Virus record (IMG/VR): IMGVR_UViG_3300033463_000003
Direction: 5' to 3' (one strand)
Origin: a virus
Taxonomy: Duplodnaviria > Heunggongvirae > Uroviricota > Caudoviricetes
DNA length: 64,000 nucleotides
Notes under the pieces: model-generated
The model's input: the letters and a program-made list of their open reading frames with translations, nothing else
Database searches by the model: none
Told to the model about the DNA's origin: nothing
In this document: positions 3,606-18,065 of the stretch, one piece after another
Layout of the letters: each line of letters opens with the position of its first letter
Numbering within the stretch: position 1 is the stretch's first letter
Translations under genes and position numbers: made by a program

Positions 3606-4085
3606 ATGATCGTTAAAGATGTAATTCCAGTGGATTTCGTTAACTACAAGGAACCTGCTATGTATGTAGCATTCCCTTACTGTTCATTTAAATGCGATAA
3701 AGAGAATGGTTGTCAACTATGTCATAACTCACAGCTGGTCAGATCTCCCAACATCGAAGTATCTGCGGAAAGATTAGTGGAAATTTATGCCGATGATGCA
3801 AAGCCGATCGCAAATGCATTGGTCTGCTGTGGTCTGGAACCATTGGATAGCTTCCCTGATCTGTTAGACCTAATAGTGGAATTTCGTCACAGCTACGATG
3901 ATCCGGTAATTGTGTACACCGGTTATACCGAAACAGAAGCTGCTACGTATATAGAAGCTCTACAGAAGTTTCCAAATATTATAGTGAAATTCGGAAGGTT
4001 CCGCCCCAACCAACCACATCATGTGGATGAACTGTTGGGAATCGAGTTAGTAAATCCTGAACAATATTCCAAAAAAATATCTTAA
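3606..4085 (+). CDS. nrdG: Anaerobic RNR activating enzyme (radical SAM), 159 aa
   Basis: Cys cluster CSFKCDKENGCQLCHN near the N-terminus. Small phage-type NrdG size. Lies directly downstream of nrdD. Confidence 0.75.
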   Translation: MIVKDVIPVDFVNYKEPAMYVAFPYCSFKCDKENGCQLCHNSQLVRSPNIEVSAERLVEIYADDAKPIANALVCCGLEPLDSFPDLLDLIVEFRHSYDDPVIVYTGYTETEAATYIEALQKFPNIIVKFGRFRPNQPHHVDELLGIELVNPEQYSKKIS

Positions 4086-4120
4086 AAGCCGTTTACAAAA
4101 GCGGCTTTTTTTGTTATAAT
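4085..4120 (+). promoter_or_regulatory. Terminator hairpin (aagccg/cggctt plus U-run) with a TTTACA -35 in its loop, followed 17 nt later by TGTTATAAT
   Basis: aaagccgTTTACAaaagcggctttttttgTTATAAT. This is the first copy of the early terminator-promoter module. Confidence 0.6.
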
Positions 4121-4154
4121 ATATATAGAGAATAAATAATGGGAGGAATTACTA

Positions 4155-4403
4155 ATGAAATTATTTATTATCACAACAGCATCATTAGATGACGACGGAA
4201 ACTTCTACAGCGAGGTTCATAAAGTTTGTAAGACAGAACAAGAAGCTATCGATGAAGTAAGAAGATATCACGAACAAGTATTAACTTACTTCGATAATCC
4301 AGACAGCGACTATGATGATGGAGATAAGGGCTTCGATGTCTGTGAAGAGGATGATATTGGTATTAGACAATACTGCCAAATCAATACTGTCGAAATAAAT
4401 TAA
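4155..4403 (+). CDS. hypothetical acidic protein (82 aa)
   Basis: ORF with a GGAGG RBS, under an early promoter. Confidence 0.55.
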   Translation: MKLFIITTASLDDDGNFYSEVHKVCKTEQEAIDEVRRYHEQVLTYFDNPDSDYDDGDKGFDVCEEDDIGIRQYCQINTVEIN

Positions 4404-4406
4404 ATT

Positions 4407-4440
4407 AGGGGTTTACAAACCTCTTTTTTTGTGGTATAAT
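4407..4440 (+). promoter_or_regulatory. Early terminator-promoter module (aggggTTTACAaacctct hairpin, then TGGTATAAT)
   Basis: Hairpin followed by U-run, with a -35 in the loop and an extended -10. Confidence 0.55.
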
Positions 4441-4462
4441 ATAATTATAAGGAGGACAGTAT

Positions 4463-4927
4463 ATGTCTACAAGATCAAGAATTGGAATTAGAAATCAAAA
4501 TGGAAGTATTACTTCTATTTATTGTCATCACGATGGTTATCCAGACGGAGTTGGTGAAGTTTTATTAAATAATTATAAGACAGAAGAAAAGATTAGACAA
4601 TTATTATCATTAGGAGATTTAAGTTCTATTGGAACTGAACCTATTGACAATCCAAGAGCGTGGGAAAGACCAAAGCTAACAGGAAATATAGGCGATTGGG
4701 CAAAACAGTGGGCAGAAATTAACCCTGATAATATGTGTAACTCATATAGAAGTCGTGGTGAAGATGTGCCAGCAAGAACTAATAGAAATATAAATGGTTT
4801 TCTCAAACTTTCTAAAGATTGTTGGGCAGAATATGTTTATTTATTTGAAAAAGACGGAACTTGGAAAGTTTTAGAATATGGCGGGGAAGATTTTAGACCA
4901 CTTGCGGAGGTTTTAGCAAATGATTAA
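4463..4927 (+). CDS. hypothetical protein, paralog family A (154 aa)
   Basis: N-terminal 70 aa are nearly identical to ORF 13000-13443 (MSTRsRIGIkN...SIYCHHDGYPD). Confidence 0.6.
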   Translation: MSTRSRIGIRNQNGSITSIYCHHDGYPDGVGEVLLNNYKTEEKIRQLLSLGDLSSIGTEPIDNPRAWERPKLTGNIGDWAKQWAEINPDNMCNSYRSRGEDVPARTNRNINGFLKLSKDCWAEYVYLFEKDGTWKVLEYGGEDFRPLAEVLAND

Positions 4928-5076
4928 ATTAGAACTTACAAAAGAAGAAGCCGAAATGTTAGAAAGCTATTTATTCCGAAAACAAGTTAATTTGGAAAAT
5001 AGTAATTTAACCGACTCTAAATGTTACCCGCTTATTTGTAGTATTAGAAAAAAATTAAAAAATAATTAAAAATATA

Positions 5077-5106
5077 TTTACTTTTTATATTAAATATGTT
5101 ATAATA
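5077..5106 (+). promoter_or_regulatory. Early promoter (TTTACT, 17-nt spacer, TGTTATAAT)
   Basis: Match to the early consensus. Confidence 0.5.
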
Positions 5107-5131
5107 ATAATGTAAGTGAGGAGGAAATGTT

Positions 5132-5461
5132 ATGGCAAAAACTTACACAACTTGTATTGGAATGAGAGGCGGAGCAACACGTCGTGGTGGATGTGATGGC
5201 TGTAGAGCTTCAGTCCAAGCTTATGACGGTTCTGTTATTATAGAGAACTGGTATGACAATGAGACATTAAAAGTCAGAGTTTGTTTAGACGAAGGTTCAT
5301 CTTGTTATGGTGATACAGTTTTCACCGGAACTTTTGAAGAGTTCAAAGAAGCAATGCAACTTTTGAAAGACATTAAAGAAAAGAAAGTTTCAGTTACTAG
5401 ACATCGCGAGAAATCTAATAAAATGAAACAATTAGAAAAAATGTTCGGAGGCGCAAACTAA
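5132..5461 (+). CDS. hypothetical protein, paralog family B (109 aa)
   Basis: Paralog of 8350-8682. Shared motifs are GATRRGG and a C-terminal VTVHREKSNKMKQLE. Confidence 0.6.
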   Translation: MAKTYTTCIGMRGGATRRGGCDGCRASVQAYDGSVIIENWYDNETLKVRVCLDEGSSCYGDTVFTGTFEEFKEAMQLLKDIKEKKVSVTRHREKSNKMKQLEKMFGGAN

Positions 5462-5697
5462 TGGAACAAATGACTGTTGGAATGCTTGTTAAATTATTAA
5501 CTCAAGCTTGCTATGCTGATCCAAAAGTTGCCTACAAAAAAATTATTGTAGCAGATGATGAAGAGGGTAATTCATATCACGGAATGTACTATCATCCAAC
5601 AACTGATGCTAAAGACGTTAAAGAAAACCTTGAGTTCAGTAATGGTGTGTATGATACTGATACAGAAAACCCTGATGAGCTTGTAATTCTTGGTTAA
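5461..5697 (+). CDS. hypothetical protein, paralog family C (78 aa)
   Basis: Paralog of 14361-14564 (DDEEGNxYH...YH...E.PxExxILG). The ATGA stop/start overlaps the upstream gene. Confidence 0.55.
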   Translation: MEQMTVGMLVKLLTQACYADPKVAYKKIIVADDEEGNSYHGMYYHPTTDAKDVKENLEFSNGVYDTDTENPDELVILG

Positions 5698-5710
5698 AAA
5701 ATAATTAAAA

Positions 5711-5746
5711 AAGCTGTTTACAACAACAGCTTTTTATGTTATAATA
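5711..5746 (+). promoter_or_regulatory. Early terminator-promoter module (aagctgTTTACAacaacagcttttt, then TGTTATAAT)
   Basis: Hairpin with a -35 in the loop. Confidence 0.55.
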
Positions 5747-5768
5747 TAATAAAGAGAGGTAAAAAGAA

Positions 5769-5996
5769 ATGAATAAAGAATTAGCAGTAAATAAATTCGT
5801 CGATATGATTCAAGCTTCTTGGACTTGGAAAAGATTAACAATGGACGAAAAGAAAAGATTTATGAAGCTTTTAGATTTAGCTATTGAAAGACGTGAAATT
5901 CAAGGAACTTACGAACAAAGATTTTCTACTTTGCATTTAATGTATGACGCATTTTTGCAAGGTTGTCAATATGAACCTATGGGTTGGAGGGAATAA
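5769..5996 (+). CDS. hypothetical protein (75 aa)
   Basis: ORF with RBS. Confidence 0.5.
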   Translation: MNKELAVNKFVDMIQASWTWKRLTMDEKKRFMKLLDLAIERREIQGTYEQRFSTLHLMYDAFLQGCQYEPMGWRE

Positions 5997-5997
5997 T

Positions 5998-6216
5998 ATG
6001 AAGAAAGTAATTAACAAAAGAATCACAGCAAAGATGGTTAAGGTTGGAGCACTTACTCGCGGCGACTATATTTTAACAAAGAATTATTTAGTCGTCCCTG
6101 CTAAGGATTCTTGGAAAGCTCACGAATGGTTAGAGGCTCACGAGTACCCTACTAATGGACAAAATTTAGTTCATAATGGTGAGTTTCAAGTTTCTGTTAT
6201 TTATATAAATAGATAA
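5998..6216 (+). CDS. hypothetical protein (72 aa)
   Basis: ATG at 5998 preceded by ggttggaggg. In frame with track ORF 5944-6216. Confidence 0.5.
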   Translation: MKKVINKRITAKMVKVGALTRGDYILTKNYLVVPAKDSWKAHEWLEAHEYPTNGQNLVHNGEFQVSVIYINR

Positions 6217-6224
6217 AAAACTAT

Positions 6225-6252
6225 TTACTTTTCTTTTTATATGTGTTATAAT
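6225..6252 (+). promoter_or_regulatory. Early promoter (TTTACT, spacer, TGTGTTATAAT)
   Basis: Consensus match. Confidence 0.5.
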
Positions 6253-6280
6253 ATAATTAAGAAAAGAGAGGTAAAACAAA

Positions 6281-6517
6281 ATGACAGTTTATATTGTTAT
6301 TACAAATGACGACTGTGAAGTTAATGGCGAAGTTGAGGGCGTTTTTTCTACATACGAAAAAGCAAGAGAATGCTTTGAAGCCATTAAAGCAGATTGGCAA
6401 CATTGGGTTTACGGCTGTGAATATATTGATACAGAAGAAGATGACTACTACTGTGTCACTAATGAAGATGTTGGCGAATTCTGTGAAGTCAAACTTGAAG
6501 CTCACGACATTAAATAA
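6281..6517 (+). CDS. hypothetical acidic protein (78 aa)
   Basis: ORF with RBS (agagagg). Confidence 0.5.
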   Translation: MTVYIVITNDDCEVNGEVEGVFSTYEKARECFEAIKADWQHWVYGCEYIDTEEDDYYCVTNEDVGEFCEVKLEAHDIK

Positions 6518-6530
6518 AAAAGTTAAAATA

Positions 6531-6564
6531 AGGGGTTTACAAAAACCCCTTTTTATGTTATAAT
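6531..6564 (+). promoter_or_regulatory. Early terminator-promoter module (aggggTTTACAaaaacccctttt, then TGTTATAAT)
   Basis: Hairpin with a -35 in the loop. Confidence 0.55.
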
Positions 6565-6591
6565 TATTATATAAGAAAGAGGTAAAATTTT

Positions 6592-6840
6592 ATGACAAAT
6601 TATACACATATTAACGATTGTTGGGAAGCAATTAGAAAAGCAAAAACTATTGAAGAAGTAGAATCACTTTTTAATACTTTTCCAAGATGGTCTGGAAACT
6701 GGTTTGTTCAAATTGAAGAAAATTCATTTTATGAAAAAGTTTATGTTGTCTATAATACTTATTGGGACAATAATTTAGATCAAGAGGAAACTGAATGTGA
6801 AACTCTTGAAATTGAAGTGCCAGATTTTGAAGAAGAATAA
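6592..6840 (+). CDS. hypothetical protein (82 aa)
   Basis: ORF with RBS. Confidence 0.5.
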   Translation: MTNYTHINDCWEAIRKAKTIEEVESLFNTFPRWSGNWFVQIEENSFYEKVYVVYNTYWDNNLDQEETECETLEIEVPDFEEE

Positions 6841-6848
6841 AAGAAACT

Positions 6849-6878
6849 ATTTACAAATATCATAAAATATGATATAAT
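6849..6878 (+). promoter_or_regulatory. Early promoter (TTTACA, then TGATATAAT)
   Basis: Consensus match. Confidence 0.45.
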
Positions 6879-6910
6879 TATAATAGAGAAAAGATAATAG
6901 GAGGAAAATT

Positions 6911-7240
6911 ATGAAAAAGTACTTAATTCATTTTATGAGCATTGATATGCCATCAGTTGAAGACGATGGTTTGAGTGATGGTTCAAATTTCGGTATTTAT
7001 GAAAAAGTGTTTAACACAAGAGAAGAAGCCGAAAAAGGTTTAGAAGAACTTATGTTAAATGACAAAGCAGAATTAGAAGAATGCTATGGGTTCAATGAAG
7101 AGGAAGAAGATTGGGAACCTACCGTTTATATTGACATTGAAAATGGTAGATATGACCGTAAAGAATTAGTTGTTTATGATAAGTTTGACGCAACTGAAAT
7201 TAACACAACTATTTATGAAATCGTGGAGGTTGAGTTTTAA
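6911..7240 (+). CDS. hypothetical acidic protein (109 aa)
   Basis: ORF with an AGGAGG RBS. Confidence 0.5.
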   Translation: MKKYLIHFMSIDMPSVEDDGLSDGSNFGIYEKVFNTREEAEKGLEELMLNDKAELEECYGFNEEEEDWEPTVYIDIENGRYDRKELVVYDKFDATEINTTIYEIVEVEF

Positions 7241-7512
7241 TGTTTGAAGCAAATACAGAACAATTAGAATTCATCAACAAAAGATATAACGATATTAAAG
7301 AAGATATTTATATCGGAACTGACTACGTTGGCGAGGGAACTGAAATTGTAGACTTCTCTATTGATGACAATGGTAGAGTTACAATGAGTGTTACAGAGTA
7401 TTACTTAAATAATCAGTATGCTATGAGGGAAAGATACCACGAAAGACACCCAAGATTTAAGCCAACAGAGCTTGATTACTTACTTGGAAAGGTAGATACT
7501 CTAAATGCCTAA
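7240..7512 (+). CDS. hypothetical protein (90 aa)
   Basis: ORF whose start overlaps the upstream stop (TAATG). Confidence 0.5.
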   Translation: MFEANTEQLEFINKRYNDIKEDIYIGTDYVGEGTEIVDFSIDDNGRVTMSVTEYYLNNQYAMRERYHERHPRFKPTELDYLLGKVDTLNA

Positions 7513-7649
7513 TGAATTTGTAGAACTTCACAAAGATATTGGGTTAGCATACTTTGTAGATAAGAAAACAAAACAAATAACCTATGTAATGGATATTAAG
7601 AAATTAAATCTTGATAAAGTTAAAGCAGATGGTTTGGAGGTAAAAGTTT

Positions 7650-7868
7650 ATGAGCATTAAATTAAATGAAGTCGCATCAAGCACAATTAAAGCAGTTGGA
7701 TACGACTATGAACATAAGGACCTACACGTTCACTTTGTAAATGGTGGGGAATACTTATATGAAAATGTACCAGCCGAAGTTTATGCAAAACTATTGGAAG
7801 CAGACAGCAAAGGTAGATTCTTGCACGCTGAGGTAATTGGAAAATATAACTACGCAAAATTGAAATAG
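7650..7868 (+). CDS. KTSC-domain protein (72 aa)
   Basis: The pattern I.AVGYD.E...L.V.F.NGG.Y.Y.NVP..VY..L..A.SKGRF matches the KTSC (lysyl-tRNA-synthetase C-terminal-like) domain common in phages. Confidence 0.6.
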   Translation: MSIKLNEVASSTIKAVGYDYEHKDLHVHFVNGGEYLYENVPAEVYAKLLEADSKGRFLHAEVIGKYNYAKLK

Positions 7869-7888
7869 TCATATAATCCTCCTTATAA

Positions 7889-7915
7889 AAGTCCAGGCAT
7901 AAAGCCTGGCTTTTT
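7889..7915 (+). terminator. Rho-independent terminator (aagtccaggc ataa agcctggc tttttc)
   Basis: GC-rich 8-bp stem followed by a U-run. Confidence 0.6.
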
Positions 7916-7964
7916 CTTTTACAATTTTTTATACGAACGGTTCTGCGATCAGAATTTTGAAGTT

Positions 7965-7990
7965 AAATTTCACTGAGTTAGTGAAAAATA
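7965..7990. repeat. Palindromic motif AAATTTCACTgagttAGTGAAA (copy 1)
   Basis: Inverted repeat TCACT/AGTGA flanked by AAATTT. A family with at least 8 members, all in non-coding islands. Confidence 0.6.
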
Positions 7991-8090
7991 CTATAAATTT
8001 ACCCGTGACCGGTAAAAATTCGGATCGAGTAACGGTCACAGTAATGGTTACAGTAACTGTCACGGTTACAGATCATAGCTGTAGCCGTAG
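7990..8090. repeat. GC-rich non-coding segment carrying an inverted repeat GTGACCG...CGGTCAC and tandem GGT(C/T)ACAGTAA / TGTCACGGTTACAG repeats
   Basis: cccGTGACCGgtaaaaattcggatcgagtaaCGGTCACAGTAAtGGTTACAGTAActGTCACGGTTACAG. GTCACAG-like words recur at 13501 and 13640. Confidence 0.5.
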
Positions 8091-8091
8091 T

Positions 8092-8119
8092 AAATTTCAC
8101 TAGAATAGTGTAAAATTTA
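8092..8119. repeat. Palindromic motif AAATTTCACTagaatAGTGtAAAATTT (copy 2)
   Basis: Same family. Lies about 125 bp from copy 1. Confidence 0.55.
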
Positions 8120-8174
8120 TCTGGATCACAGACCGTACAAGAAGTCTATCTTCTAAAAATTATTAAATTAATAG

Positions 8175-8203
8175 TTTACAAATTTATTAAAAGATGTTAT
8201 AAT
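8175..8203 (+). promoter_or_regulatory. Early promoter (TTTACA, 14-nt spacer, TGTTATAAT)
   Basis: Consensus match. A second copy at 8260-8288 lies directly upstream of 8350. Confidence 0.5.
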
Positions 8204-8349
8204 ATTAATAGAGGAAAAGAATTAAATATAAAATTGTTAAAAAAATAATTTAAAAACTATTTACAATTAATTAAATTCGTGTTATAATATTAATGTAAGA
8301 AAGAGTGAACGAACAACACTCTATAATAAAACAGAAAGGAAAAAGGAAG

Positions 8350-8682
8350 ATGTCAAAATTCTATGGAATGGTTGTTGGCAATAGAGGCGCAGCAACACGT
8401 GGGGGAAGTGCTAACTCCGGATTCAAAGCAACAGCACAAAGTTGGGATGGCTCAGTCATCACAAGATTAGATTATGATAATGATAATAACCTCATTGTCA
8501 CAATTGAAATGGAAGAAGGCTCAAGAACTTACGGAGACGTAATGTTTAGAGGAACCTATGAAGAACTTAAAGAAGTTTTTGAAACTGCAAAGCTCATTAA
8601 AGAAAAAAGAGCAAGCGTTACAGTTCATCGTGAAAAATCAAATAAGATGAAACAGCTTGAAAGATGGGGATGGATTAAATAA
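8350..8682 (+). CDS. hypothetical protein, paralog family B (110 aa)
   Basis: Paralog of 5132-5461. ATG at 8350 follows aaaggaag. Confidence 0.6.
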   Translation: MSKFYGMVVGNRGAATRGGSANSGFKATAQSWDGSVITRLDYDNDNNLIVTIEMEEGSRTYGDVMFRGTYEELKEVFETAKLIKEKRASVTVHREKSNKMKQLERWGWIK

Positions 8683-8858
8683 TGAGTAGAACAGTTTATA
8701 TTGTTGTAAAAGATGGTATGATTGTAGATGCTTACGCCGACCATCTTACAGACCTTGTTATTCTTGACCTTGATACTAACTCAGAGGAAGAAGAAAAGAT
8801 CGTTCAAGCTGAGTTAAAGAAAATTCAAGAAAGCAACGATTGCATTGAAATTTATTAG
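8682..8858 (+). CDS. hypothetical small protein (58 aa)
   Basis: Start overlaps the upstream stop (TAATG). Below the ORF-track size cutoff. Open frame ends in TAG. Confidence 0.4.
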   Translation: MSRTVYIVVKDGMIVDAYADHLTDLVILDLDTNSEEEEKIVQAELKKIQESNDCIEIY

Positions 8859-8867
8859 GAGGCAAGT

Positions 8868-9056
8868 ATGGCTATAGTTATTATACTGATAATTGCATTC
8901 TGGTTCTTACCATTACCACTTGCATTACAAATTCTAATGACAGTCTTTGGCAGCTTACATTGCATATTCGCAATAATAAAAGCGTGTGTAAAAGCTTATA
9001 ATAAAACACATGCGCCAAAGAAAACTGGAATTTCAACATTAGATAGATTTCTTTAA
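8868..9056 (+). CDS. small membrane protein (62 aa)
   Basis: Hydrophobic N-terminal half (IVIILIIAFWFLPLPLALQILMTVFGSL). AGGAGG RBS. Confidence 0.5.
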   Translation: MAIVIILIIAFWFLPLPLALQILMTVFGSLHCIFAIIKACVKAYNKTHAPKKTGISTLDRFL

Positions 9057-9074
9057 AAAAATTATAAAAACCTA

Positions 9075-9102
9075 TTTACAAAGTAGGTTTTTTATGTTAT
9101 AA
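9075..9102 (+). promoter_or_regulatory. Early terminator-promoter module (cctatTTTACAaagtaggtttttt, then TGTTATAAT)
   Basis: Hairpin with a -35 in the loop. Confidence 0.55.
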
Positions 9103-9129
9103 TATTATTAGAAAAGAGGTAAGAAACTT

Positions 9130-9444
9130 ATGTTTGAAAATGAATTAAAAAATAAAATTGAATTTGTTAACGAAATTAGCACAGCTTTAACCATTGGGTG
9201 TAGAAATATTGACAGAGCAGAATATGTTATCTTCCAATCAGATAAAAACCCAGAGTGGTATACCGAGTTTGTGGTCATGCACTATAGAGGAGGTGCTATT
9301 CAAGCCAGATACTGCACAGGCAATAGTTGTGGAGCTATCTTTGAGGAAATTGCACAAATGTTATATACATCACAAAAATTCCCACAAGATACAAGGGACT
9401 ACTTAGAGTTTGTAAAAAGAAATTCTAAAATTTTGCAACTTTAG
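9130..9444 (+). CDS. hypothetical protein (104 aa)
   Basis: ORF with RBS. Confidence 0.5.
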   Translation: MFENELKNKIEFVNEISTALTIGCRNIDRAEYVIFQSDKNPEWYTEFVVMHYRGGAIQARYCTGNSCGAIFEEIAQMLYTSQKFPQDTRDYLEFVKRNSKILQL

Positions 9445-9447
9445 TAT

Positions 9448-9474
9448 TTACAAATAAAAAAATATGGTATAATA
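9448..9474 (+). promoter_or_regulatory. Early promoter (TTTACA, spacer, TGGTATAAT)
   Basis: Consensus match. Confidence 0.5.
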
Positions 9475-9498
9475 TATTATAGAGGTGGCAAATGAGCT

Positions 9499-9843
9499 AT
9501 GGAAAAAGAATTAGAATTTACAACCGCAGATCTTGATGATTTAAAAGAACTGGATGAGCTAGACCTTTCTGATGTTCCAAGTCAATATGAATATCAAGTT
9601 TGGTTATTAGGCTATGATGCCAACCAACTTGCTAATGATTATGAATATCAAATTGATTGGTTCGACTCATTTACAGAAGCTAAAAAGTGTTTTGATTTCT
9701 TTGCTGATGTTAAGAATTTAAAAGAAGTATTTACAATTCCAAATGATGTAAAGAATTTAGAACTTAGAATTGAATACGTAGTTACAAGCGATAACTATGA
9801 AGTCAATGAAGAAACATTAGAAACTACTACATTTGTTTTATAA
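9499..9843 (+). CDS. hypothetical acidic protein (114 aa)
   Basis: ORF with RBS (agaggtgg). Confidence 0.5.
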   Translation: MEKELEFTTADLDDLKELDELDLSDVPSQYEYQVWLLGYDANQLANDYEYQIDWFDSFTEAKKCFDFFADVKNLKEVFTIPNDVKNLELRIEYVVTSDNYEVNEETLETTTFVL

Positions 9844-9856
9844 GGAGCAAAAGGTT

Positions 9857-10168: not shown

Positions 10169-10203
10169 TCTACTGGAGGTAAGATTGAAAGGAGAAAGTT
10201 AAG

Positions 10204-11079
10204 ATGTTACAACAAGTTAAGAAAGATTGTATGTCAGCAGCTTCTAGACTTGGCGACTATCAAGCAATGAGTGTAGATACTTTAGCTGATGGATACTGCA
10301 AAGCTTTAGACGAACAAGATATGGATAATATGGATTCTTATCTTGGTGCTTTAATTTTACGCTTTTGGTATAGAATTAATAAACTTTTACAAGAAAATTT
10401 AAATTATAGCAATGATAGAACCGAATATTTTGACTGGTTAGTTGAGGCTATTAACTATGCTTGTAAATACAGAAAGTGGCAAGACCCAGCAAATAAGGTT
10501 AATGCACAACAATGTATTAATCAATGTATTGCTACAATCAGATTACAACATTATTATGTCAGCAATTTAAAGAAGAATGCTGGTGCTTATGGTAGCATGG
10601 TAAGCTTAGATGATAATGTTGCTGGCGACCCAGATGGCAAGCGCCTTCTTGATACTATTGAATCTGATGAAATTCCAGCAGATCAAGAAAGTCATGTTGT
10701 AGAATACTTGGTGCAATACTATATTAACAACAAGAAACTGGTAGAAGCTATCATCTTAGATAACATTGCGTTCCAAGATTCATATAAACTTACTAAAAAG
10801 GTAGTTAGAACCACAGATGAAGAAGGTAATCCAGTTAAATACCACGAATACTCTTCTAAATTCTGGCCATATAGAGTAGTTCAAGCTTTAAATGCACTTC
10901 CAGATGATTATTTAGAGTATTTTATGGAAAAATATGAAGATGTTGTTCCAGTTGAGTTCGAAGCAGCACTAAATAGCATCAAAAAAGCTAACAATCAGAA
11001 ACTCTATAAGTCAATTGAAAAAACATTGGCTGGCTTACGTGCAAATAAGGAACTTTTAGAGGAATTATTTTACGCATAG
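10204..11079 (+). CDS. hypothetical protein (291 aa). Largest early-module protein, function unassigned.
   Basis: ORF with a strong RBS (aaggagaaag). No catalytic motif recognised. Confidence 0.55.
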   Translation: MLQQVKKDCMSAASRLGDYQAMSVDTLADGYCKALDEQDMDNMDSYLGALILRFWYRINKLLQENLNYSNDRTEYFDWLVEAINYACKYRKWQDPANKVNAQQCINQCIATIRLQHYYVSNLKKNAGAYGSMVSLDDNVAGDPDGKRLLDTIESDEIPADQESHVVEYLVQYYINNKKLVEAIILDNIAFQDSYKLTKKVVRTTDEEGNPVKYHEYSSKFWPYRVVQALNALPDDYLEYFMEKYEDVVPVEFEAALNSIKKANNQKLYKSIEKTLAGLRANKELLEELFYA

Positions 11080-11162
11080 GCAAATTTAGAAAATTTCAAA
11101 CTAAATGTAGGTGTAAAAGCCTACATTTTATTGTATTATATAGTATAAGGTAGGTAAGCATT

Positions 11163-11879
11163 ATGTATTTAGATATATTGGCAGAAGATAGCTATGGAAA
11201 GTATAGCCGTAAGATTGCAGCTATAGCAGATTTGTATACTGCAGTGTATTTTTCTGAAATTTTAGATATTATAAAAAAGGTTGTTAAGAAAGGTACTTAT
11301 GATGAACTCGGTTATTTTATATTGGATCGAGAATACATCAAAAGTCGCACTACAATAGAAGAAGAGGATCAAATTAACTGTGATTCCGTTTTAGCAAGAG
11401 CAGGAATACTTGCCGTTGATGAAAAGAATTTAAATAAGATTAAAGTAGATTTAGAAAAAGCAGTGGCAATTATGATTGATGAGGATCCGAAGAAACTAGA
11501 AAAGCTCGCTAAAGAAATGAAGATTACACGTCAAGCTGCTGCGAAGAATAAACAATTATATATTATTGCTGGACTAAAGAAAGCAATAGTGGAACCTAAT
11601 GCGCAGATGTTAGATGCCTTACGTAATTGGGTTGAAGCAGTTTATGCCAACAAACGTTATCTAACAAAGCGTGCGATCGAAATTTTCCAAGAAACTATTA
11701 GAAAGTATAGTGAAAATTTAAATGTGCAGCTGAAGATTGTTGAGATCGCTACAATAAATGGTTGGACTGATGCTGCTTGGGCTATTAGTAATTTTGAAAG
11801 AGACTACGCTAACAGAACATCACTTTACAAACCAACATCTGAATCTAATGGTAAAACAAAAGCTGGAGTGGAATTCTAA
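11163..11879 (+). CDS. hypothetical protein (238 aa)
   Basis: ORF with RBS (aaggtagg). Confidence 0.55.
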   Translation: MYLDILAEDSYGKYSRKIAAIADLYTAVYFSEILDIIKKVVKKGTYDELGYFILDREYIKSRTTIEEEDQINCDSVLARAGILAVDEKNLNKIKVDLEKAVAIMIDEDPKKLEKLAKEMKITRQAAAKNKQLYIIAGLKKAIVEPNAQMLDALRNWVEAVYANKRYLTKRAIEIFQETIRKYSENLNVQLKIVEIATINGWTDAAWAISNFERDYANRTSLYKPTSESNGKTKAGVEF

Positions 11880-12199
11880 TGAGTGCAAAATATAAAATAA
11901 TAAATGATTTGCATGCGCATCGAAGGAATTTGGTAGGCTGGTTAGTGTTAGAACTCACTATACTAGGAATATTAATAGCTACAATTGCATTGATCTGCAC
12001 AGCCGACTCATCGTTGGGCAATAAAATTCTAATGTCAATACTTACTTCAGTGGGAATTGCAATTATGATCCGGATCGCAGCTGCATCGATCCGAAAGGTG
12101 TATGCTTTAAATATTACACTAAAAGAAATGAAAACTTTAACCGATGAGGAAATTAAATTCTTCTACATCGATACATCTGATAATAATGGGAGTGAATAG
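11879..12199 (+). CDS. membrane protein with two predicted TM helices (106 aa)
   Basis: Hydrophobic segments LVGWLVLELTILGILIATIALIC and ILMSILTSVGIAIMIRIAAASI. Start overlaps the upstream stop. Confidence 0.5.
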   Translation: MSAKYKIINDLHAHRRNLVGWLVLELTILGILIATIALICTADSSLGNKILMSILTSVGIAIMIRIAAASIRKVYALNITLKEMKTLTDEEIKFFYIDTSDNNGSE

Positions 12200-12200
12200 T

Positions 12201-12530
12201 ATGATAGTGAAAGTTTATAACAGAAAAGCTGATCATGATCCAACGCAGCTGCTAGAATCATTAACTAAGGAAACTGATTTAGTGCGAGTTCAAGCATCTG
12301 ATTATCATGAGCCACGTGAAGAAGATTTAGATTTCGAAAGTAGAATTTTATGTGGTGCAGAAACTATAATGTCTGATATTAAGAAGGTGTTGGGTATTGT
12401 AGACTTAGAAATATTTATGAAGCACCACATGTACGATCATGCTTTTGAAAGAGGCGATTTAGTGGAAGTAGATGGCAAACTATTTTTAAAATCTGAAGTT
12501 GGTTATATTCCAGCAGAAATAAAAAATTAA
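12201..12530 (+). CDS. hypothetical protein (109 aa)
   Basis: ATG at 12201 immediately follows the upstream stop. In frame with track ORF 12144-12530. Confidence 0.5.
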   Translation: MIVKVYNRKADHDPTQLLESLTKETDLVRVQASDYHEPREEDLDFESRILCGAETIMSDIKKVLGIVDLEIFMKHHMYDHAFERGDLVEVDGKLFLKSEVGYIPAEIKN

Positions 12531-12548
12531 AAAATTATAAAAAAACTA

Positions 12549-12578
12549 TTTACAAACAACAAAAAACATATTATAATA
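12549..12578 (+). promoter_or_regulatory. Early promoter (TTTACA, then TATTATAAT)
   Basis: Consensus match. Confidence 0.45.
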
Positions 12579-12634
12579 TATATGTAAGATGAATAAAGAA
12601 CTTACAAATATTAATTATAAGGAGCTTATCAAAA

Positions 12635-12916
12635 ATGCAAAAAACAGTTAATCAAGTCAAAAACGCCTACACATTCTATTTACAACCAAAGTTAGGTAAA
12701 ATCTATTCAATGTCAAAAAATAACAATGTTGAATTAGAAGCAATGAAAAGAATTGTTAAGAGTTATGTTAAAGAAGCTAGATACTCTTACCCAGTCAATC
12801 AACTTACCAAATTACAATGGTTCAAAAATACAGTTGATGAAATTGACTCAAAGAAACAATTATACTTCTTCTGTAGAAACTCTGTCCGTAGAGCACAAGC
12901 AACATTAGCAAGATAA
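12635..12916 (+). CDS. hypothetical basic protein (93 aa)
   Basis: ORF with an AAGGAG RBS. Confidence 0.5.
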   Translation: MQKTVNQVKNAYTFYLQPKLGKIYSMSKNNNVELEAMKRIVKSYVKEARYSYPVNQLTKLQWFKNTVDEIDSKKQLYFFCRNSVRRAQATLAR

Positions 12917-12930
12917 TTAAAAACAAAAAA

Positions 12931-12972
12931 GATTGTAAAAGTTGTTTACAATCTTTTTATTTTGCGTTATAA
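12931..12972 (+). promoter_or_regulatory. Early terminator-promoter module (gattgtaaaagttgTTTACAatcttttt, then GCGTTATAAT)
   Basis: 9-bp stem with a -35 in the distal arm, then a U-run. Confidence 0.55.
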
Positions 12973-12999
12973 TATATGTAGAAAAGAGGAATAATAAAT

Positions 13000-13443
13000 A
13001 TGTCAACAAGATGCAGAATTGGAATTAAAAACAAAGATAATACTATTACATCAATCTATTGCCACCACGATGGTTATCCAGATTGTGTGGGTGATACTCT
13101 GGTAAATCATTACACCAACGAAGATAAGATTAGGAAACTTATGGAACTTGGTGATATGAGTTCTTTAGGAAATGAACCTATTGATAATCCAAACGCTTGG
13201 GAAACACCTGGACTATGTGATGACTGGTTTGGAAAGTATAAAGAATTACACCCTGATGATATGTGTGATACTTATAAGTCAAGAGGTGAAGATGTTCCAG
13301 CAAGTATAGACAATAACTTAAAAGAATATCAAGAACGTACCGAGGACAGTTGGGGTGAATATGGTTATATCTTCCAAGATAATGACTGGTATGTGTTTGA
13401 ATACAAAGGCGAAGAATTAAAATTAGTTAAAGATTTATTATAA
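13000..13443 (+). CDS. hypothetical protein, paralog family A (147 aa)
   Basis: Paralog of 4463-4927. Confidence 0.6.
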   Translation: MSTRCRIGIKNKDNTITSIYCHHDGYPDCVGDTLVNHYTNEDKIRKLMELGDMSSLGNEPIDNPNAWETPGLCDDWFGKYKELHPDDMCDTYKSRGEDVPASIDNNLKEYQERTEDSWGEYGYIFQDNDWYVFEYKGEELKLVKDLL

Positions 13444-13469
13444 AGGGGTTTGTAAAAACCTCTTTTTTT
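13443..13469 (+). terminator. Rho-independent terminator (aaaggggtttgtaaaaacctcttttttt). A second hairpin with U-run follows at 13482-13528.
   Basis: Stem-loop followed by a U-run. Confidence 0.55.
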
Positions 13470-13525
13470 ATTTTATAAAAAACATCGGAACTAAAAATTT
13501 GGTCACAGATCTGTTCCGGATTTTT

Positions 13526-13550
13526 TATTTTCACTGAGCTTAGTGGAATT
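13526..13550. repeat. Palindromic motif TTTTCACTgagctTAGTGgAATTT (copy 3)
   Basis: Same family. Confidence 0.55.
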
Positions 13551-13650
13551 TGCCTGCATCGTACGGGATCTGCGCATGCGACTGCTGTGCGAATGCTTGT
13601 AAGTTTTTGTTAAATGCCTGCACAGCCTGTACATCGGTGTGACAGCTACA

Positions 13651-13676
13651 GCAAATTTCACTAGACACTAGTATAA
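13651..13676. repeat. Palindromic motif AAATTTCACTagacaCTAGTatAAAA (copy 4)
   Basis: Same family. About 125 bp from copy 3. GC-rich DNA lies between the two, with the duplicated word tgcctgca. Confidence 0.5.
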
Positions 13677-13733
13677 AAACTTATAGGATGTCACCCCCCC
13701 TGGATGTACATGAAGTTTATTCCAAAAACCTGT

Positions 13734-13761
13734 TTACATTTTTGTGCACATATGTTATAAT
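13734..13761 (+). promoter_or_regulatory. Early promoter (TTTACA, spacer, TGTTATAAT)
   Basis: Consensus match. Confidence 0.5.
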
Positions 13762-13792
13762 ATTAATAGGAAGAAAGAAGGTAATAAAAATT

Positions 13793-14044
13793 ATGAAGTA
13801 TGTAAATAATGGAAAAACTTATGATGTTGAAGAAGTTAATTTAATGGGTGCAATTATAAACGTTAATGGAACTTCTATCACAGACTTTCAAAAGATGTAC
13901 GAACTAACTGGCGATAAAATGCTTTATGGAAATGGTGGTTATACAGTATTTGTTGGGAGCGATGAAATCTACTATGACACATTCGAGCAAGCTTATGATT
14001 GTGCCATGAATAAACAAAAAGATACTTTTTGGTTGGAGGACTAA
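13793..14044 (+). CDS. hypothetical protein (83 aa)
   Basis: The ATG at 13793 lies downstream of the promoter. Track ORF 13688-14044 begins upstream of the promoter, so the internal ATG is preferred. Confidence 0.5.
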   Translation: MKYVNNGKTYDVEEVNLMGAIINVNGTSITDFQKMYELTGDKMLYGNGGYTVFVGSDEIYYDTFEQAYDCAMNKQKDTFWLED

Positions 14045-14048
14045 TTAT

Positions 14049-14300
14049 ATGAAACTAAATAAAAAACAAAAAGAGTTCTTATTTGAAAAGTACTATGTTA
14101 CTGCCAAAGTCTTAGATGCTTGTGTTGAAGATGGTTGGCAAAACTACTTTATTAAATGGTTTAATTGGGAATTAAAAACTGAATTAGACCAATATGGTTT
14201 TCATAGACTTTATTTAAAAGATAAAGATGATGGAACTATTGAATATACAATTGGTTTAAACTTCCATGACAATGATTTAGAATTGTTAAAAAGTTTATAA
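14049..14300 (+). CDS. hypothetical protein (83 aa)
   Basis: ORF closely coupled to the upstream gene. Confidence 0.5.
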   Translation: MKLNKKQKEFLFEKYYVTAKVLDACVEDGWQNYFIKWFNWELKTELDQYGFHRLYLKDKDDGTIEYTIGLNFHDNDLELLKSL

Positions 14301-14307
14301 AAGCTAT

Positions 14308-14335
14308 TTACAAATTAAAAAAGTTAGACTATAAT
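14308..14335 (+). promoter_or_regulatory. Early promoter (TTTACA, spacer, gacTATAAT)
   Basis: Consensus match. Confidence 0.45.
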
Positions 14336-14360
14336 ATAAATAGAAAGAAGGTAAGAAGGA

Positions 14361-14564
14361 ATGAATACACTTACAGTTAAAGAATTATTAGAATTATGTA
14401 AAGAACAAGTTGCATTAGGTAATGGTGATAAAAAGATACTATTATCAAATGACGACGAAGGTAATGGTTATCATGAATGCTTCTATCATTTTACAGAGGA
14501 TGTAGCAGGTAATGATATGTGGGGCGAAATTGAACACCCAGAAGAGTATATTATTTTAGGCTAA
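14361..14564 (+). CDS. hypothetical protein, paralog family C (67 aa)
   Basis: Paralog of 5461-5697. Confidence 0.55.
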   Translation: MNTLTVKELLELCKEQVALGNGDKKILLSNDDEGNGYHECFYHFTEDVAGNDMWGEIEHPEEYIILG

Positions 14565-14577
14565 GGAGGATTTTACA

Positions 14578-14742
14578 ATGGATGAAACATATACAATTAT
14601 CGTAAAACGCCAAGGCAAAAAAGATATGATTAGAAAGGGCTTAGATAAACTAAATGCTTCTATAATTCCGGCAGAATTACAATTAGCTTTTCCAAAAGCA
14701 TTTAAATCGGGTTATATGAGTGTAATAGTTTTAAAAGAATAA
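14578..14742 (+). CDS. hypothetical small protein (54 aa)
   Basis: AAGGAGG RBS 7 nt upstream. Below the track size cutoff. Confidence 0.4.
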   Translation: MDETYTIIVKRQGKKDMIRKGLDKLNASIIPAELQLAFPKAFKSGYMSVIVLKE

Positions 14743-14744
14743 TT

Positions 14745-15167
14745 ATGACGTACGAAGAAATACAATACAATAAAGAAAGAATAACAGTTAATAGAATAGT
14801 TATACTAGCTTTAGAGTACTTGCAAGAAAAGAAACATTTAAAACTAGATGTACAACAAATTGAGTCTATGCCAGGATACGGACCTATGGACCCACTATCT
14901 ACTTTTTACATTCTAACTATTCAATACACACCAGACCAACCTCCTATCGGTGTTGCAACTTGGGATGCCATTCGACATATTAGAGTAATGTTGTCTAGTA
15001 GTTATTTTGACCCACACCCAATGCCTGATGACTCTGATGTATTAAGAACTTTATATGGTAAAGTAGATAATACTAAGTATACTATATTAAGACTTGTTGA
15101 AAAAATTTATCAGGGCATTAAACCTTATATCACAAAACCTAAGTGGCAAGAATTTAGTTTTGATTAA
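14745..15167 (+). CDS. hypothetical protein (140 aa)
   Basis: ORF. Confidence 0.5.
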   Translation: MTYEEIQYNKERITVNRIVILALEYLQEKKHLKLDVQQIESMPGYGPMDPLSTFYILTIQYTPDQPPIGVATWDAIRHIRVMLSSSYFDPHPMPDDSDVLRTLYGKVDNTKYTILRLVEKIYQGIKPYITKPKWQEFSFD

Positions 15168-15175
15168 AAAAACTA

Positions 15176-15204
15176 TTTACATTATTTAATAGATATGTTA
15201 TAAT
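15176..15204 (+). promoter_or_regulatory. Early promoter (TTTACA, spacer, TGTTATAAT)
   Basis: Consensus match. Confidence 0.5.
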
Positions 15205-15228
15205 AATAATGTAAGGAAGGTAAGTAAT

Positions 15229-15552
15229 ATGAAATTAAGTAATTATCATCAAACATTAAAAGCAAGAGGTTATAAAGTTCGTGAGTTGAGCGAATATCAA
15301 GGAATTAATGTGTTTGAAAAAGAGCACAAATTTAATAAGATAGTTTGCACAGTCGTTAAAGATACTCATGGTAAGGGAGTTGAAATGACATTCAATATCT
15401 ACCCAACATTAACGACACCAAAAGATATGGTTGAATTTAAGGAGCAAGAGTTTGATAGAAGTTATCTTGTTAAAGAAGCGACTGTTATTCATCAAGCCTT
15501 TGAAGAATTAAAAACTCTTAAATCACCAAAGCACGTTCATTACTTTAATTAA
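15229..15552 (+). CDS. hypothetical protein (107 aa)
   Basis: ORF with an AAGGAAGG RBS. Confidence 0.5.
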   Translation: MKLSNYHQTLKARGYKVRELSEYQGINVFEKEHKFNKIVCTVVKDTHGKGVEMTFNIYPTLTTPKDMVEFKEQEFDRSYLVKEATVIHQAFEELKTLKSPKHVHYFN

Positions 15553-15566
15553 GGAGGTAAAGAAAG

Positions 15567-15713
15567 ATGAGCCAAAGTGTTGTTGCCGTTGAAATCGAAA
15601 ATGTTATGGGGTTCAAGCCAAATATGGAAGCAGTTGAAACTATAACTTGGTTTAAAAATAATAATCCTTATATGGAATTAAAACAAATTATTGAAGATTA
15701 TTATTTGTGATAA
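15567..15713 (+). CDS. hypothetical small protein (47-48 aa). The open frame ends in TGA followed immediately by TAA.
   Basis: AGGAGG RBS. The tandem TGA-TAA at 15708-15713 is the only in-frame TGA seen in the early module. Confidence 0.4.
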
Positions 15714-15736
15714 CGTTTAATTAAATAAACAAAAGG

Positions 15737-15774
15737 AAAGATAACGTTTAATATAACTGACGTTATCTTTTTTT
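15737..15774 (+). terminator. Rho-independent terminator (gataacgt...acgttatc plus a U7 run)
   Basis: 8-bp stem followed by a U-run. Confidence 0.6.
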
Positions 15775-15845
15775 ATTATTTACATTTTTGTTGGAATACA
15801 TTATAACGAAAACATGATTCAGATGATTGATCAGATTCATCAATT

Positions 15846-15869
15846 ATCACACTGAGCTAGTGAAATTTA
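15846..15869. repeat. Palindromic motif TCACACTgagCTAGTGAAATTT (copy 5)
   Basis: Same family. Sits in an island containing GATC palindromes (catgattcagatgattgatcagattcatc). Confidence 0.5.
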
Positions 15870-15892
15870 GAAAGCTGTAAATCCGATCACAT

Positions 15893-16222
15893 ATGTCAAC
15901 ACCAAACTTTTTTGACAAACTTCGTCATAATTTTTCCGGATCGACATCTGATTGGATTTATAACATCGTAGCTTTTAGTGAATTTAGTGAAGAATTATTC
16001 CGATCGTACGATGTTGTAACGATCTGTTGTTGTGCTAAATTACATGTACGAGGTTACAAATTTACGATGTATAGAATAATGTTAGTGAAAAAAGATTCAA
16101 CACCACAGCTAATTGAGGTCTGTGAATCTGAACTGGCGGCAGAAAAAGCACTGGAAAACTTTAAAGCTGCATTCCCAAAGCAGATCAGAACCGGTGAGTT
16201 TACAGTTTATATTGAAAAATAG
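15893..16222 (+). CDS. hypothetical protein (109 aa)
   Basis: Long ORF but no convincing RBS. Lies just after the repeat island. Confidence 0.4.
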   Translation: MSTPNFFDKLRHNFSGSTSDWIYNIVAFSEFSEELFRSYDVVTICCCAKLHVRGYKFTMYRIMLVKKDSTPQLIEVCESELAAEKALENFKAAFPKQIRTGEFTVYIEK

Positions 16223-16258
16223 CACAAGAAAAATTTGTGTTATTTTTTTATTTTCTTA

Positions 16259-16287
16259 TTTACAAATGTTTTAAATAATGTTATAAT
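16259..16287 (+). promoter_or_regulatory. Early promoter (TTTACA, spacer, TGTTATAAT)
   Basis: Consensus match. This is the last copy of the early class. Confidence 0.5.
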
Positions 16288-16311
16288 ATATATGTAAAGA
16301 GGAAAAGATAA

Positions 16312-16494: not shown

Positions 16495-16700
16495 TGAAAA
16501 GATGTTGTATTTGTGGTTGTATCATTGAAAGTCCTATGGGTGAAAACAATCCTGAAGGTGCTTGTTGGAAAACTGAAACTGGTGATATTGTAGAAGCAAC
16601 GTTTGAACCAACTGATGTATGTTGTAATGAATGTAATACCAGATATGTTATTCCAGGTAGAATATATAAATTAAATAAAGTTAAAAGAGGCGAAAAATAA
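16494..16700 (+). CDS. Cys-rich Zn-ribbon-like protein (68 aa)
   Basis: CCICGC near the N-terminus and CCNEC later. Start overlaps the upstream stop. Confidence 0.5.
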   Translation: MKRCCICGCIIESPMGENNPEGACWKTETGDIVEATFEPTDVCCNECNTRYVIPGRIYKLNKVKRGEK

Positions 16701-18040: not shown

Positions 18041-18065
18041 AATAAAGAATAAAATAAAAGAATAA

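Follow-up and report, generated by a model that had tools for sequence, protein, structure and literature searches.

Promoter-early stem-loops (PeSLs) are composite terminator/promoter motifs described in the hyperplastic, ORFan-rich regions of the T4-like phages RB49/phi1, T4/PST and KVP40/nt-1 (Arbiol et al. 2010, PMC2839356; Comeau et al. 2014, PMC4122927). In a PeSL, a sigma-70-like promoter preceded by an AT-rich tract is combined with a stem-loop and with a Shine-Dalgarno sequence and start codon, and five subclasses are distinguished by the position of the stem-loop, one of them overlapping the -35 box (PMC2839356, PMC4122927). Promoter and terminator activity was demonstrated with lacZ fusions, and mini-circles resulting from PeSL recombination were reported (PMC2839356). 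The T4/PST promoters follow TTTACW-N17-TAYWAT and the nt-1 stems A3-4G3-loop-C3T3-4, and degraded half-PeSLs, which have a -35 and a stem and no -10, occur near indels (PMC4122927). Here, we describe repeated promoter cassettes, a third of them with a terminator-like hairpin around the -35 hexamer, in the early module of an uncultured phage from rumen metagenomes. The stretch analyzed, hereafter the window, comprises the 64,000 nucleotides (nt) of the IMG/VR record IMGVR_UViG_3300033463_000003 (Caudoviricetes), and all positions are those of the whole stretch.

Like PeSLs, the cassettes of the window have TTTACW-N17 promoters, stems built of an A-run, a GC clamp and a T-run, half-elements, and an ORFan-rich, intergenic setting; also as in PeSLs, close relatives differ by indels and replacements whose ends are located at the cassettes. 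The stable stem-loop that characterizes PeSLs overlaps the -35 in 6 of the 18 cassettes and stands adjacent and upstream in 2, and the other 10 are promoter only. In RB49/phi1, the stem lies mostly between the two boxes or over the -10. Here, the hairpin takes one of only two positions relative to the -35, with the promoter spacer doubling as the predicted U-tract, and this is the detail that distinguishes the cassettes of this phage. Furthermore, all published PeSL carriers are T4-like (Straboviridae), whereas the phage studied here is not T4-like and appears to be TGA-recoded; being carried by T4-like phages concerns where PeSLs have so far been reported and not how they work. PeSL activity and mini-circles were established by experiment, whereas the cassettes described here are known from sequence alone. 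Overall, these cassettes are of the PeSL type, in a new lineage, and represent a known kind of element rather than a new mechanism. An earlier note on this DNA had called the architecture unusual, which was overstated, since cassettes with a stem-loop overlapping the -35 were published in 2010 and 2014 (PMC2839356, PMC4122927). Beyond the PeSL papers, nothing direct was found in the literature on a -35 box inside a terminator hairpin.

Other known systems share parts of this organization. Stewart et al. reportedly described in 1998 a host-takeover module in the Bacillus phage SPO1, in which about two dozen tiny genes without known function form about a dozen short operons, served by strong sigma-A early promoters and strong Shine-Dalgarno sequences. 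We know of no report of SPO1 early promoters inside terminator hairpins, and no sequence relation was found between the SPO1 module and the early module of the window. The T4 early "uber" promoters combine UP, -35, TGn and -10 elements (Hinton 2010, PMC2988021). Our cassettes resemble them in bringing four recognition elements together in one promoter, repeated before small early genes, which would out-compete host promoters, but the T4 class is not defined by an overlapping terminator. Finally, T7 class II terminators act as Escherichia coli promoters, and a recycling and genome-streamlining rationale has been discussed for combined elements (bioRxiv 10.64898/2026.02.12.705533), and bifunctional terminator-promoter elements have been engineered in yeast (PMC10298055). 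As in those cases, termination and initiation would be joined here in one short DNA element; unlike the hairpin-independent T7 class II terminators or the synthetic yeast parts, the cassettes interleave a predicted class I hairpin terminator with a canonical bacterial promoter.

Promoter array and predicted terminator hairpins of the early module

The promoter array is real and far beyond chance. The pattern TTTACA-N15-19-TATAAT is present in 16 copies in the window, where 0.52 are expected and where 100 dinucleotide-preserving shuffles yielded a maximum of 2. Fifteen of the 16 exact matches lie on the + strand between positions 4092 and 16287, and 18 sites are found on that strand and in that interval once TTTACT or one -10 mismatch is allowed. 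All 18 promoters are intergenic on a simple gene map, and no comparable promoter sites were found in front of genes in the remaining 47 kb of the window. The repeated intergenic promoter element proposed in the earlier note is thereby confirmed. Its statement that the -10 lies exactly 17 nt from the -35 applies to 17 of the 18 promoters, the exception being the site at 9447, with 15 nt to TATAAT (or 17 nt to TAATAT). The module contains about 35 genes of 47 to 291 amino acids (aa) in units of 1 to 4 genes, close to the one to three small genes per cassette given before.

We observed that the similarity between cassettes extends well beyond the hexamers. Aligned on the -35, the promoters give the consensus AAAAA.cTaTTTACAaa...TaTGTTATAATAT, in which an A-tract at about -46 to -38, cTa, TTTACA, aa, a T-rich end of the spacer, TGT, TATAAT and AT are shared. 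The core matches at 11 of 12 positions at 14 sites, 11 of which have the TG. Most of the 18 promoters carry this TG at -15/-14 together with the string TGTTATAATAT. An AGAGG or GGAGG Shine-Dalgarno sequence and an ATG follow 20 to 35 nt downstream of the -10 (57 nt at 12549), and a repeat search of the window recovered the cassettes as families of direct repeats of 64 to 70 nt, with sub-families. Thus a -35, a spacer of 17 +/- 1 nt, a TGn, a -10 with A in second and T in sixth place and an A-rich proximal UP subsite, the features of a primary-sigma promoter, are all present.

To evaluate the hairpins, a 48-nt segment from -25 to +23 around each -35 was folded as RNA and compared with 300 versions in which the flanks were shuffled and the hexamer kept. 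Energy alone is a weak test, since 8.8% of arbitrary 48-nt segments of this DNA fold with a minimum free energy (MFE) of -9.5 kcal/mol or lower; therefore, we relied on these flank-preserving shuffles, on a strict rule (at least 6 pairs with at least 2 G:C, a loop of 3 to 8 nt, and at least 5 T within the next 8 nt) and on a control with unrelated loci, described below. Six of the 18 cassettes have a hairpin around the -35 that is directly followed by a T-run, and the strict rule returned the same six. Five of these six hairpins beat at least 98.7% of their flank shuffles. The other 12 cassettes fold no better than their shuffles; 10 are without any terminator, and in 2 a distinct terminator precedes the -35 by a few bases (Table 1).

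The fused cassettes occur in two registers. Type A, with five sites in the window, has the layout [A4-5][4-5-nt clamp]TTT-ACA(A)-AA[complementary clamp][T5-7](A)TGT-TATAAT, so that the promoter A-tract forms the outer 5' arm, the TTT of the -35 pairs with the following AAA, ACA(A) forms the loop, and the T-run of the spacer corresponds to the U-tract. In its modal geometry, the loop lies at +3 to +6 and the clamp ends at +13, followed by nine bases (TTTTTATGT) and then TATAAT. In type B, represented at 12945 and common in relatives as TTTACTTTTTT, the -35 itself is the 3' arm, paired with an upstream AAGTAAA-like sequence, and the stem stands 13 to 18 nt from the -10. The sequence features of intrinsic terminators, a hairpin containing G:C pairs behind a gene with at least 5 U in the 8 nt that directly follow, were found in the six fused hairpins and in six stand-alone or adjacent ones, with stems that are modest in GC (2 to 4 G:C pairs).

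The core of the earlier reading stands, namely repeated strong sigma-70-type promoters of which some are fused to predicted intrinsic terminators, and the presence of this design in related contigs (see below) strengthens it. These results modify the earlier description in several respects. About 17 elements had been assigned to a single terminator-promoter design; the 18 promoters are indeed alike, but only six have the hairpin. Likewise, the -35 had been placed in the hairpin loop, and ACA(A) is looped in the five type A cassettes, but the TTT is in the stem there and the hexamer at 12945 lies wholly in the 3' arm. Among nine hairpin sites listed as checked, three (6225, 13734 and 16259) turned out to lack a hairpin at the -35: the 13734 site shows nothing but a 6-bp GTGCAC palindrome in the spacer, and at 16259 an AT-rich hairpin ends 11 nt upstream. 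The view that nearly every early unit is both insulated and re-initiated by one element of about 40 bp does not hold, with hairpins in 6 of the 18 cassettes and no terminator in 10.

Incomplete elements were also observed. Three half-cassettes combine a terminator with a TTTACA-like sequence and lack a -10 (Table 1), and the stem of the one at 13442 is closely similar to the stems at 4407 and 6530. The terminator at 11103 is probably a decayed fused cassette. In addition, the cassette at 8175 is empty, and the interval 8175-8259 may be the footprint of an ORF (open reading frame) deletion.

Table 1. Positions of cassettes, terminator-like hairpins and non-coding repeats in the window
Feature	Position	Strand	Details	MFE (kcal/mol)	Shuffles as stable	Basis
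Fused cassette, type A	4084..4120	+	hairpin 4084-4109 (AAAAGCCGTTT/ACAA/AAGCGGCTTTT), T7; -35 TTTACA at 4092, -10 TATAAT 4115-4120, TGn	-12.8	0/300	
Fused cassette, type A	4407..4440	+	hairpin 4407-4424 (AGGGGTT/TACA/AACCTCT), T7; -35 at 4412	-7.8	16%	
Promoter-only cassette	5077..5105	+	TTTACT-N17-TATAAT, TGn			pattern search
Fused cassette, type A	5708..5745	+	hairpin 5708-5735 (AAAAAGCTGTT/TACAAC/AACAGCTTTTT); -35 at 5717	-11.6	0/300	
Promoter-only cassette	6224..6252	+	TTTACT; no hairpin			pattern search, folding
Fused cassette, type A	6527..6564	+	hairpin core 6530-6551 (AAGGGGTTT/ACAA/AAACCCCTT), T-run; -35 at 6536	-11.8	0.3%	
Promoter-only cassette	6850..6878	+				pattern search, folding
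Half-cassette	7893..7923	+	strong terminator CCAGGC/ATAAA/GCCTGG, T-run, TTTACA (7918), no -10			
Non-coding repeat E1	7926-8160					
Promoter-only cassette, empty	8175..8203	+	Shine-Dalgarno-like AGAGGA, no ORF; next cassette 85 nt downstream			
Promoter-only cassette	8260..8288	+	serves genes 8350-9056			
Fused cassette, type A	9066..9103	+	hairpin 9066-9092 (AAAAACCTATTT/ACA/AAGTAGGTTTTT); -35 at 9075	-9.5	1.3%	
Promoter-only cassette	9447..9475	+	atypical spacing			
Terminator hairpin	11103..11150	+	loop GTGTAAAA, like a degraded -35, then weak -10-like TATTAT			
Promoter-only cassette	12549..12577	+	no TGn; 57-nt leader			
Fused cassette, type B	12926..12973	+	14-bp hairpin 12926-12958 (AAAAAGATTGTAAA/AGTTG/TTTACAATCTTTTT), T-rich tail; -35 TTTACA at 12945 in 3' arm; DNA z-score -7.3	-12.6	0.7%	
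Half-cassette	13442..13472	+	hairpin AAAGGGGTT/TGTA/AAAACCTCTTT, T7; TTTGTA in place of TTTACA; no -10			
Non-coding repeat E2	13481-13725					
Promoter-only cassette	13733..13761	+	no hairpin over -35			folding
Promoter-only cassette	14307..14335	+				
Promoter-only cassette	15176..15204	+				
Terminator with adjacent promoter	15737..15807	+	hairpin 15737-15770, T7; non-overlapping weaker promoter TTTACA-N17-TATAAC 15779-15807			
Non-coding repeat E3	15801-16060					
Terminator-like hairpin with adjacent promoter	16214..16287	+	AT-rich hairpin 16214-16248; promoter 16259-16287, 11 nt on; not embedded			
Half-cassette	16683..16721	+	terminator 16683-16712, T-run, TATTTACA (16714), no -10; repeat family D5			
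Non-coding repeat E4	16726-16945					

Hairpin conservation and cassette junctions in relatives

A Megablast search with positions 4000 to 16400 and a tblastn search with one 554-aa window protein found no match in a phage collection; therefore, relatives were sought in IMG/VR by a pattern scan, a protein scan and an exact-protein look-up. The pattern and protein scans retrieved rumen-metagenome contigs with equally dense promoter arrays. By a -7 kcal/mol criterion, hairpins accompany 7 of 17 promoters in contig L054, 8 of 13 in L076, 5 of 14 in L001, 5 of 10 in L017 and 4 of 10 in L033. After pooling and de-duplication, 30 non-identical hairpin cassettes were obtained, 22 of type A and 8 of type B. 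Among them are 17 different 4-nt clamps, the complement being matched each time; as the 30 had been selected for folding, a covariation count on them would be circular, and orthologous pairs and an external control were used instead.

The hairpin is conserved through compensatory change between orthologous cassettes. The cassette at 11837 in L054 has the clamp GGCTA/TAGCC and its ortholog at 8825 in L076 has GCCCA/TGGGC, which amounts to two compensatory pair changes within a collinear alignment of 84.6% identity. As external control, other fetched viral loci with two or fewer copies of the promoter pattern were examined by the strict rule. An overlapping terminator was found at 34 of 85 promoters in the array-bearing loci versus 2 of 131 in the unrelated IMG/VR loci (Fisher P = 4e-14, which is indicative only, the counts not being independent, as the array loci are partly related and contig L129 partly duplicates the window). 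The hairpin is a selected, recurrent and optional add-on to the promoter.

Next to the hairpins, the junctions between related contigs point to the cassettes. In the exact-protein look-up, the window proved 99.4 to 100% identical to the rumen-metagenome contigs L129 to L132 to the right of 6592. Compared with L129 and L131, identity is 99.4 to 99.7% rightwards from the ATG at 6592, and leftwards the sequences are unrelated, including the nrdD/nrdG allele and the early genes. The junction region comprises 6511-6592 of the window, compared with 6313-6389 of L129 and with L131. The fused cassette at 6530 itself has a different allele (GGGG/CCCC against AGGG/CCCT), and its leader differs as well. 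Between the window and L129 or L131, a large module has been replaced, and the breakpoint falls within a fused cassette.

A second case is seen between L054 and L076. In L076, an extra gene stands between cassettes at 1734 and 2439, where L054 has a single cassette, at 5304. This single cassette looks chimeric, with a left flank that matches the L076 cassette at 1734 and a right flank that matches the one at 2439. Two more L054/L076 junctions lie in cassettes or within 16 nt of them. In all, four of six junctions fall inside cassette footprints, which make up about 13% of the sequence (binomial P of about 0.003, from a small sample). When the window is compared with L054 or L001, segments of single homologous genes appear in scrambled order.

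Proposed working of the cassettes and alternatives

We consider it likely that the polymerase with the primary sigma factor of the host fires the cassettes early, that the clamped ones terminate the upstream transcript inside the next promoter, insulating the units without intergenic cost, and that the cassettes provide the homology for gene shuffling. The region would be a hyperplastic early module of the "host-takeover" type, with about 35 small genes, nearly all of them lacking known homologs, in about 18 short transcription units. Each unit would begin with a copy of a cassette of about 70 bp that consists of an UP-like A-tract, a -35, a spacer, an extended -10, a short leader and a Shine-Dalgarno sequence, and that may represent a promoter of maximal strength for the primary-sigma RNA polymerase of the host. 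In a third of the cassettes, a GC clamp of 4 to 5 nt would have been added on either side of the -35. With the clamps in place, the A-tract would become the 5' A-arm, TTTACAAA the top of the stem and the loop, and the T-rich spacer the U-tract of a canonical intrinsic terminator. The hairpin would form in the RNA of the upstream transcript, which would be released within the spacer, at about -16 to -12 of the next promoter, and it would be absent from the downstream mRNA because it is located upstream of the next start site. The same duplex DNA would be read as a promoter, so that one 40-bp element may end one unit and start the next. Moreover, near-identical repeats around gene blocks could act as linkers for homologous recombination, by which modules of promoter plus ORF would be swapped, inserted and deleted.

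Several points weigh against this explanation. Since 12 of the 18 cassettes are without an overlapping hairpin, the fusion is optional and not the organizing principle of the module. The hairpin at 4412 is the weakest of the six and is not significant by energy alone, although it is a canonical 7-bp stem followed by T7. The -35 reads TTTACA rather than TTGACA. The junction statistics come from six junctions in partly related contigs, and selection against breaks inside genes could alone have placed the junctions at the cassettes. In addition, we infer the activity and use of the promoters, termination and its efficiency, the early timing and the mechanism of recombination from the DNA sequence.

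The overlap might instead reflect a coupled hand-off, in which the polymerase that releases its RNA in the spacer re-initiates there ("recycling"), or in which a cruciform or supercoiling sets promoter strength. The predicted release site is indeed inside the next promoter, with a modal distance of 9 nt between clamp and -10 in type A, but the phasing is not fixed, as type B stems are farther from the -10. In vitro, E. coli RNA polymerase stays on the DNA and re-initiates nearby in 37 to 55% of termination events (PMC6978380), and a 2026 preprint suggests that combined terminator-promoters would favor recycling; yet recycling spans hundreds of base pairs, for which an overlap is unnecessary, and genome compaction accounts for the overlap without any coupling. 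Two-thirds of the promoters do without a hairpin, and their core matches are equally good. As for a cruciform, the single-stranded DNA arms of five of the six fused cassettes fold, at -6 to -12 kcal/mol, but sigma reads duplex DNA and the hairpin forms in the upstream RNA. Stems of 7 to 14 bp, mostly A:T, with loops of 3 to 6 nt are marginal for cruciform extrusion at physiological supercoiling. The earlier note had suggested that promoter strength could vary with cruciform or secondary-structure state or with upstream read-through, for which these data give no support. We therefore regard a coupling of this kind as unlikely. The same low weight is given to its fuller version, in which the overlap is a selected hand-off and the early units fire as a relay from limited captured host polymerase after sigma rebinding, with the hairpin or cruciform state tuning the relay.

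It is very unlikely, in our judgment, that the hairpins are a by-product with no terminator role, arising from chance pairing of A- and T-tracts, or serving as recombination or protein-binding sites or as stabilizers of 3' ends. The A-tract and the T-tract do belong to the promoter consensus and supply 4 to 5 stem pairs, and the hairpin at 4412 is no better than its shuffles. However, the other five hairpins outdo nearly all shuffles even though these keep the A/T composition, the 17 GC clamps are always complementary, orthologous cassettes show compensatory substitutions, the hairpin is nearly absent from the unrelated copies of the promoter pattern, and at least five T, the defining mark of intrinsic terminators, directly follow every hairpin. 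The PeSL authors speculated that the stems are targets of recombination proteins (PMC2839356); the variable stem sequence speaks against sequence-specific binding. Even less likely is that the motif is not a host-sigma early promoter but is recognized by an RNA polymerase or sigma factor of the phage, or serves a middle or late stage. This reading could appeal to the TTTACA hexamer and to the two larger early proteins (291 and 238 aa) without assigned function. Against it, 11 of 12 core positions and both accessory elements agree with the pattern of T4 early promoters, which the unmodified polymerase of the host reads (PMC2988021), and the early promoters of the T4/PST PeSLs likewise have TTTACW as their -35 (PMC4122927). 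The cassettes serve small ORFans that contain no in-frame TGA, as expected if they are translated ahead of recoding, and the window proteins that were scanned contained neither a sigma nor an RNA-polymerase domain.

Under the reading that we prefer, of host-sigma early promoters with optional terminators, cassettes of the PeSL type also exist outside the T4-like phages and their Gram-negative hosts. An unrelated, stop-codon-recoded group of rumen phages, probably of Clostridia-like hosts, would use the same solution; the GGAGG-type (Firmicute-type) Shine-Dalgarno sequences and the TRTG-type extended -10 suggest that the host is probably Gram-positive-like. This lends support to the view that large lytic phages in general shuffle accessory genes by way of repeated promoter/terminator linkers. 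The fused cassette would also be a compact natural part, an insulator plus promoter in 40 bp with many sequence-diverse stems, and the array offers a natural test-bed for whether terminator-promoter overlap favors polymerase recycling.

Early genes, TGA recoding and non-coding repeats

Among the few early proteins scanned, family matches were almost absent, consisting of KTSC and one PHROG of unknown function. Two paralogous pairs were identified among the early genes, 4463-4927/13000-13443 (74% nt identity over 211 nt) and 5132-5461/8350-8682 (74% over 68 nt). The 4463/13000 family matches PHROG 1987 (unknown function) and has a homolog in L001.

Outside the early module, TGA is a sense codon, most likely Trp, to judge from the coding frames. 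The nrdD gene is one frame (1657-3603) with four in-frame TGAs, at 2203, 3205, 3337 and 3475. Its product aligns end to end with NrdD of Thermotoga maritima (4COI, E = 4e-151), with W, W, F and Y opposite the four TGAs, and is nearest to that of Clostridium phage c-st (40%). A split nrdD, as a pseudogene or an intron-containing gene, was rejected in favor of TGA as Trp. Several coding gaps under table 11 likewise become ORFs upon TGA read-through, with TAA and TAG as the only stops, and further recoded stretches are found at 23363-25912, 26329-27015, 27710-28825, 40956-48233 and 55769-63196. The 35 early genes contain 49 TGG and no in-frame TGA, and they end in TAA (29), TAG (5) or, in one case, a TGA directly before TAA. 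Borges et al. reportedly found in 2022 that the early genes of recoded phages remain readable in the host code. The early genes of the window, in lacking in-frame TGA, are like those of recoded phages, which stay readable in the host code (PMC11210395). ARAGORN found no suppressor tRNA in the window, and neither ARAGORN nor Rfam, the latter at gathering thresholds, returned anything over its entire length.

The non-coding repeats E1 to E4 are four diverged copies of 220 to 260 bp, with a column identity of about 54%, each located behind a terminator or half-cassette. The promoter at 15779-15807 reads into E3. The copies contain TAGTGAAATTT and have in common the inverted boxes TAGTG(A/G)AATTT ... 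AAATTTCACTA, 82 to 97 nt apart, and a local palindrome, TTTCACTGAG-TAGTGAAA. GATC occurs in them at 13.2 per kb versus 1.6 per kb elsewhere, an eight-fold enrichment. A coding function was rejected, as stops are present in all six frames. On folding, E1 alone was significant (z = -5.95; E2 to E4, z = -1.2 to -2.3), and RNAalifold returned the conserved inverted boxes only, with no covariation. No Rfam match was obtained for E1 to E4, an nhmmer profile found nothing in 128 loci, and an IMG/VR scan for the inverted-box pattern gave unrelated matches only. Analogous GATC-rich non-coding stretches were observed in the relatives L033 (4260-4640), L054 (about 13250-13600) and L076 (10020-10330), in which a TAGTG(T)GAA motif ((T)CTAGTGTGAA, AATTTAGTG) is repeated several times in direct orientation. 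The stretch in L076 starts directly after a perfect TTTACA-N17-TATAAT promoter and, because of this position, is probably transcribed early. Candidate roles for E1 to E4 are a protein-binding or iteron array, origin-like DNA and an early non-coding RNA.

A 380-bp non-coding gap at 18040-18420, unrelated to E1 to E4, contains a terminator, a GC-rich stretch (GGGGGGTAC...GAGAGCCCC...CGCGCCCGCGCCTGCACGC) and a -10-like TGTATAAT. An EcoRI-like adenine methyltransferase is encoded at 31419-32477, and very large surface-type proteins occupy 34903-63196 (Cthe_2159 carbohydrate-binding domain, Big_2, BspA-type LRR and Listeria-Bacteroides repeat). Finally, one contig that carries a window protein belongs to the 0.2 to 1 Mb size class, which suggests a jumbo phage.

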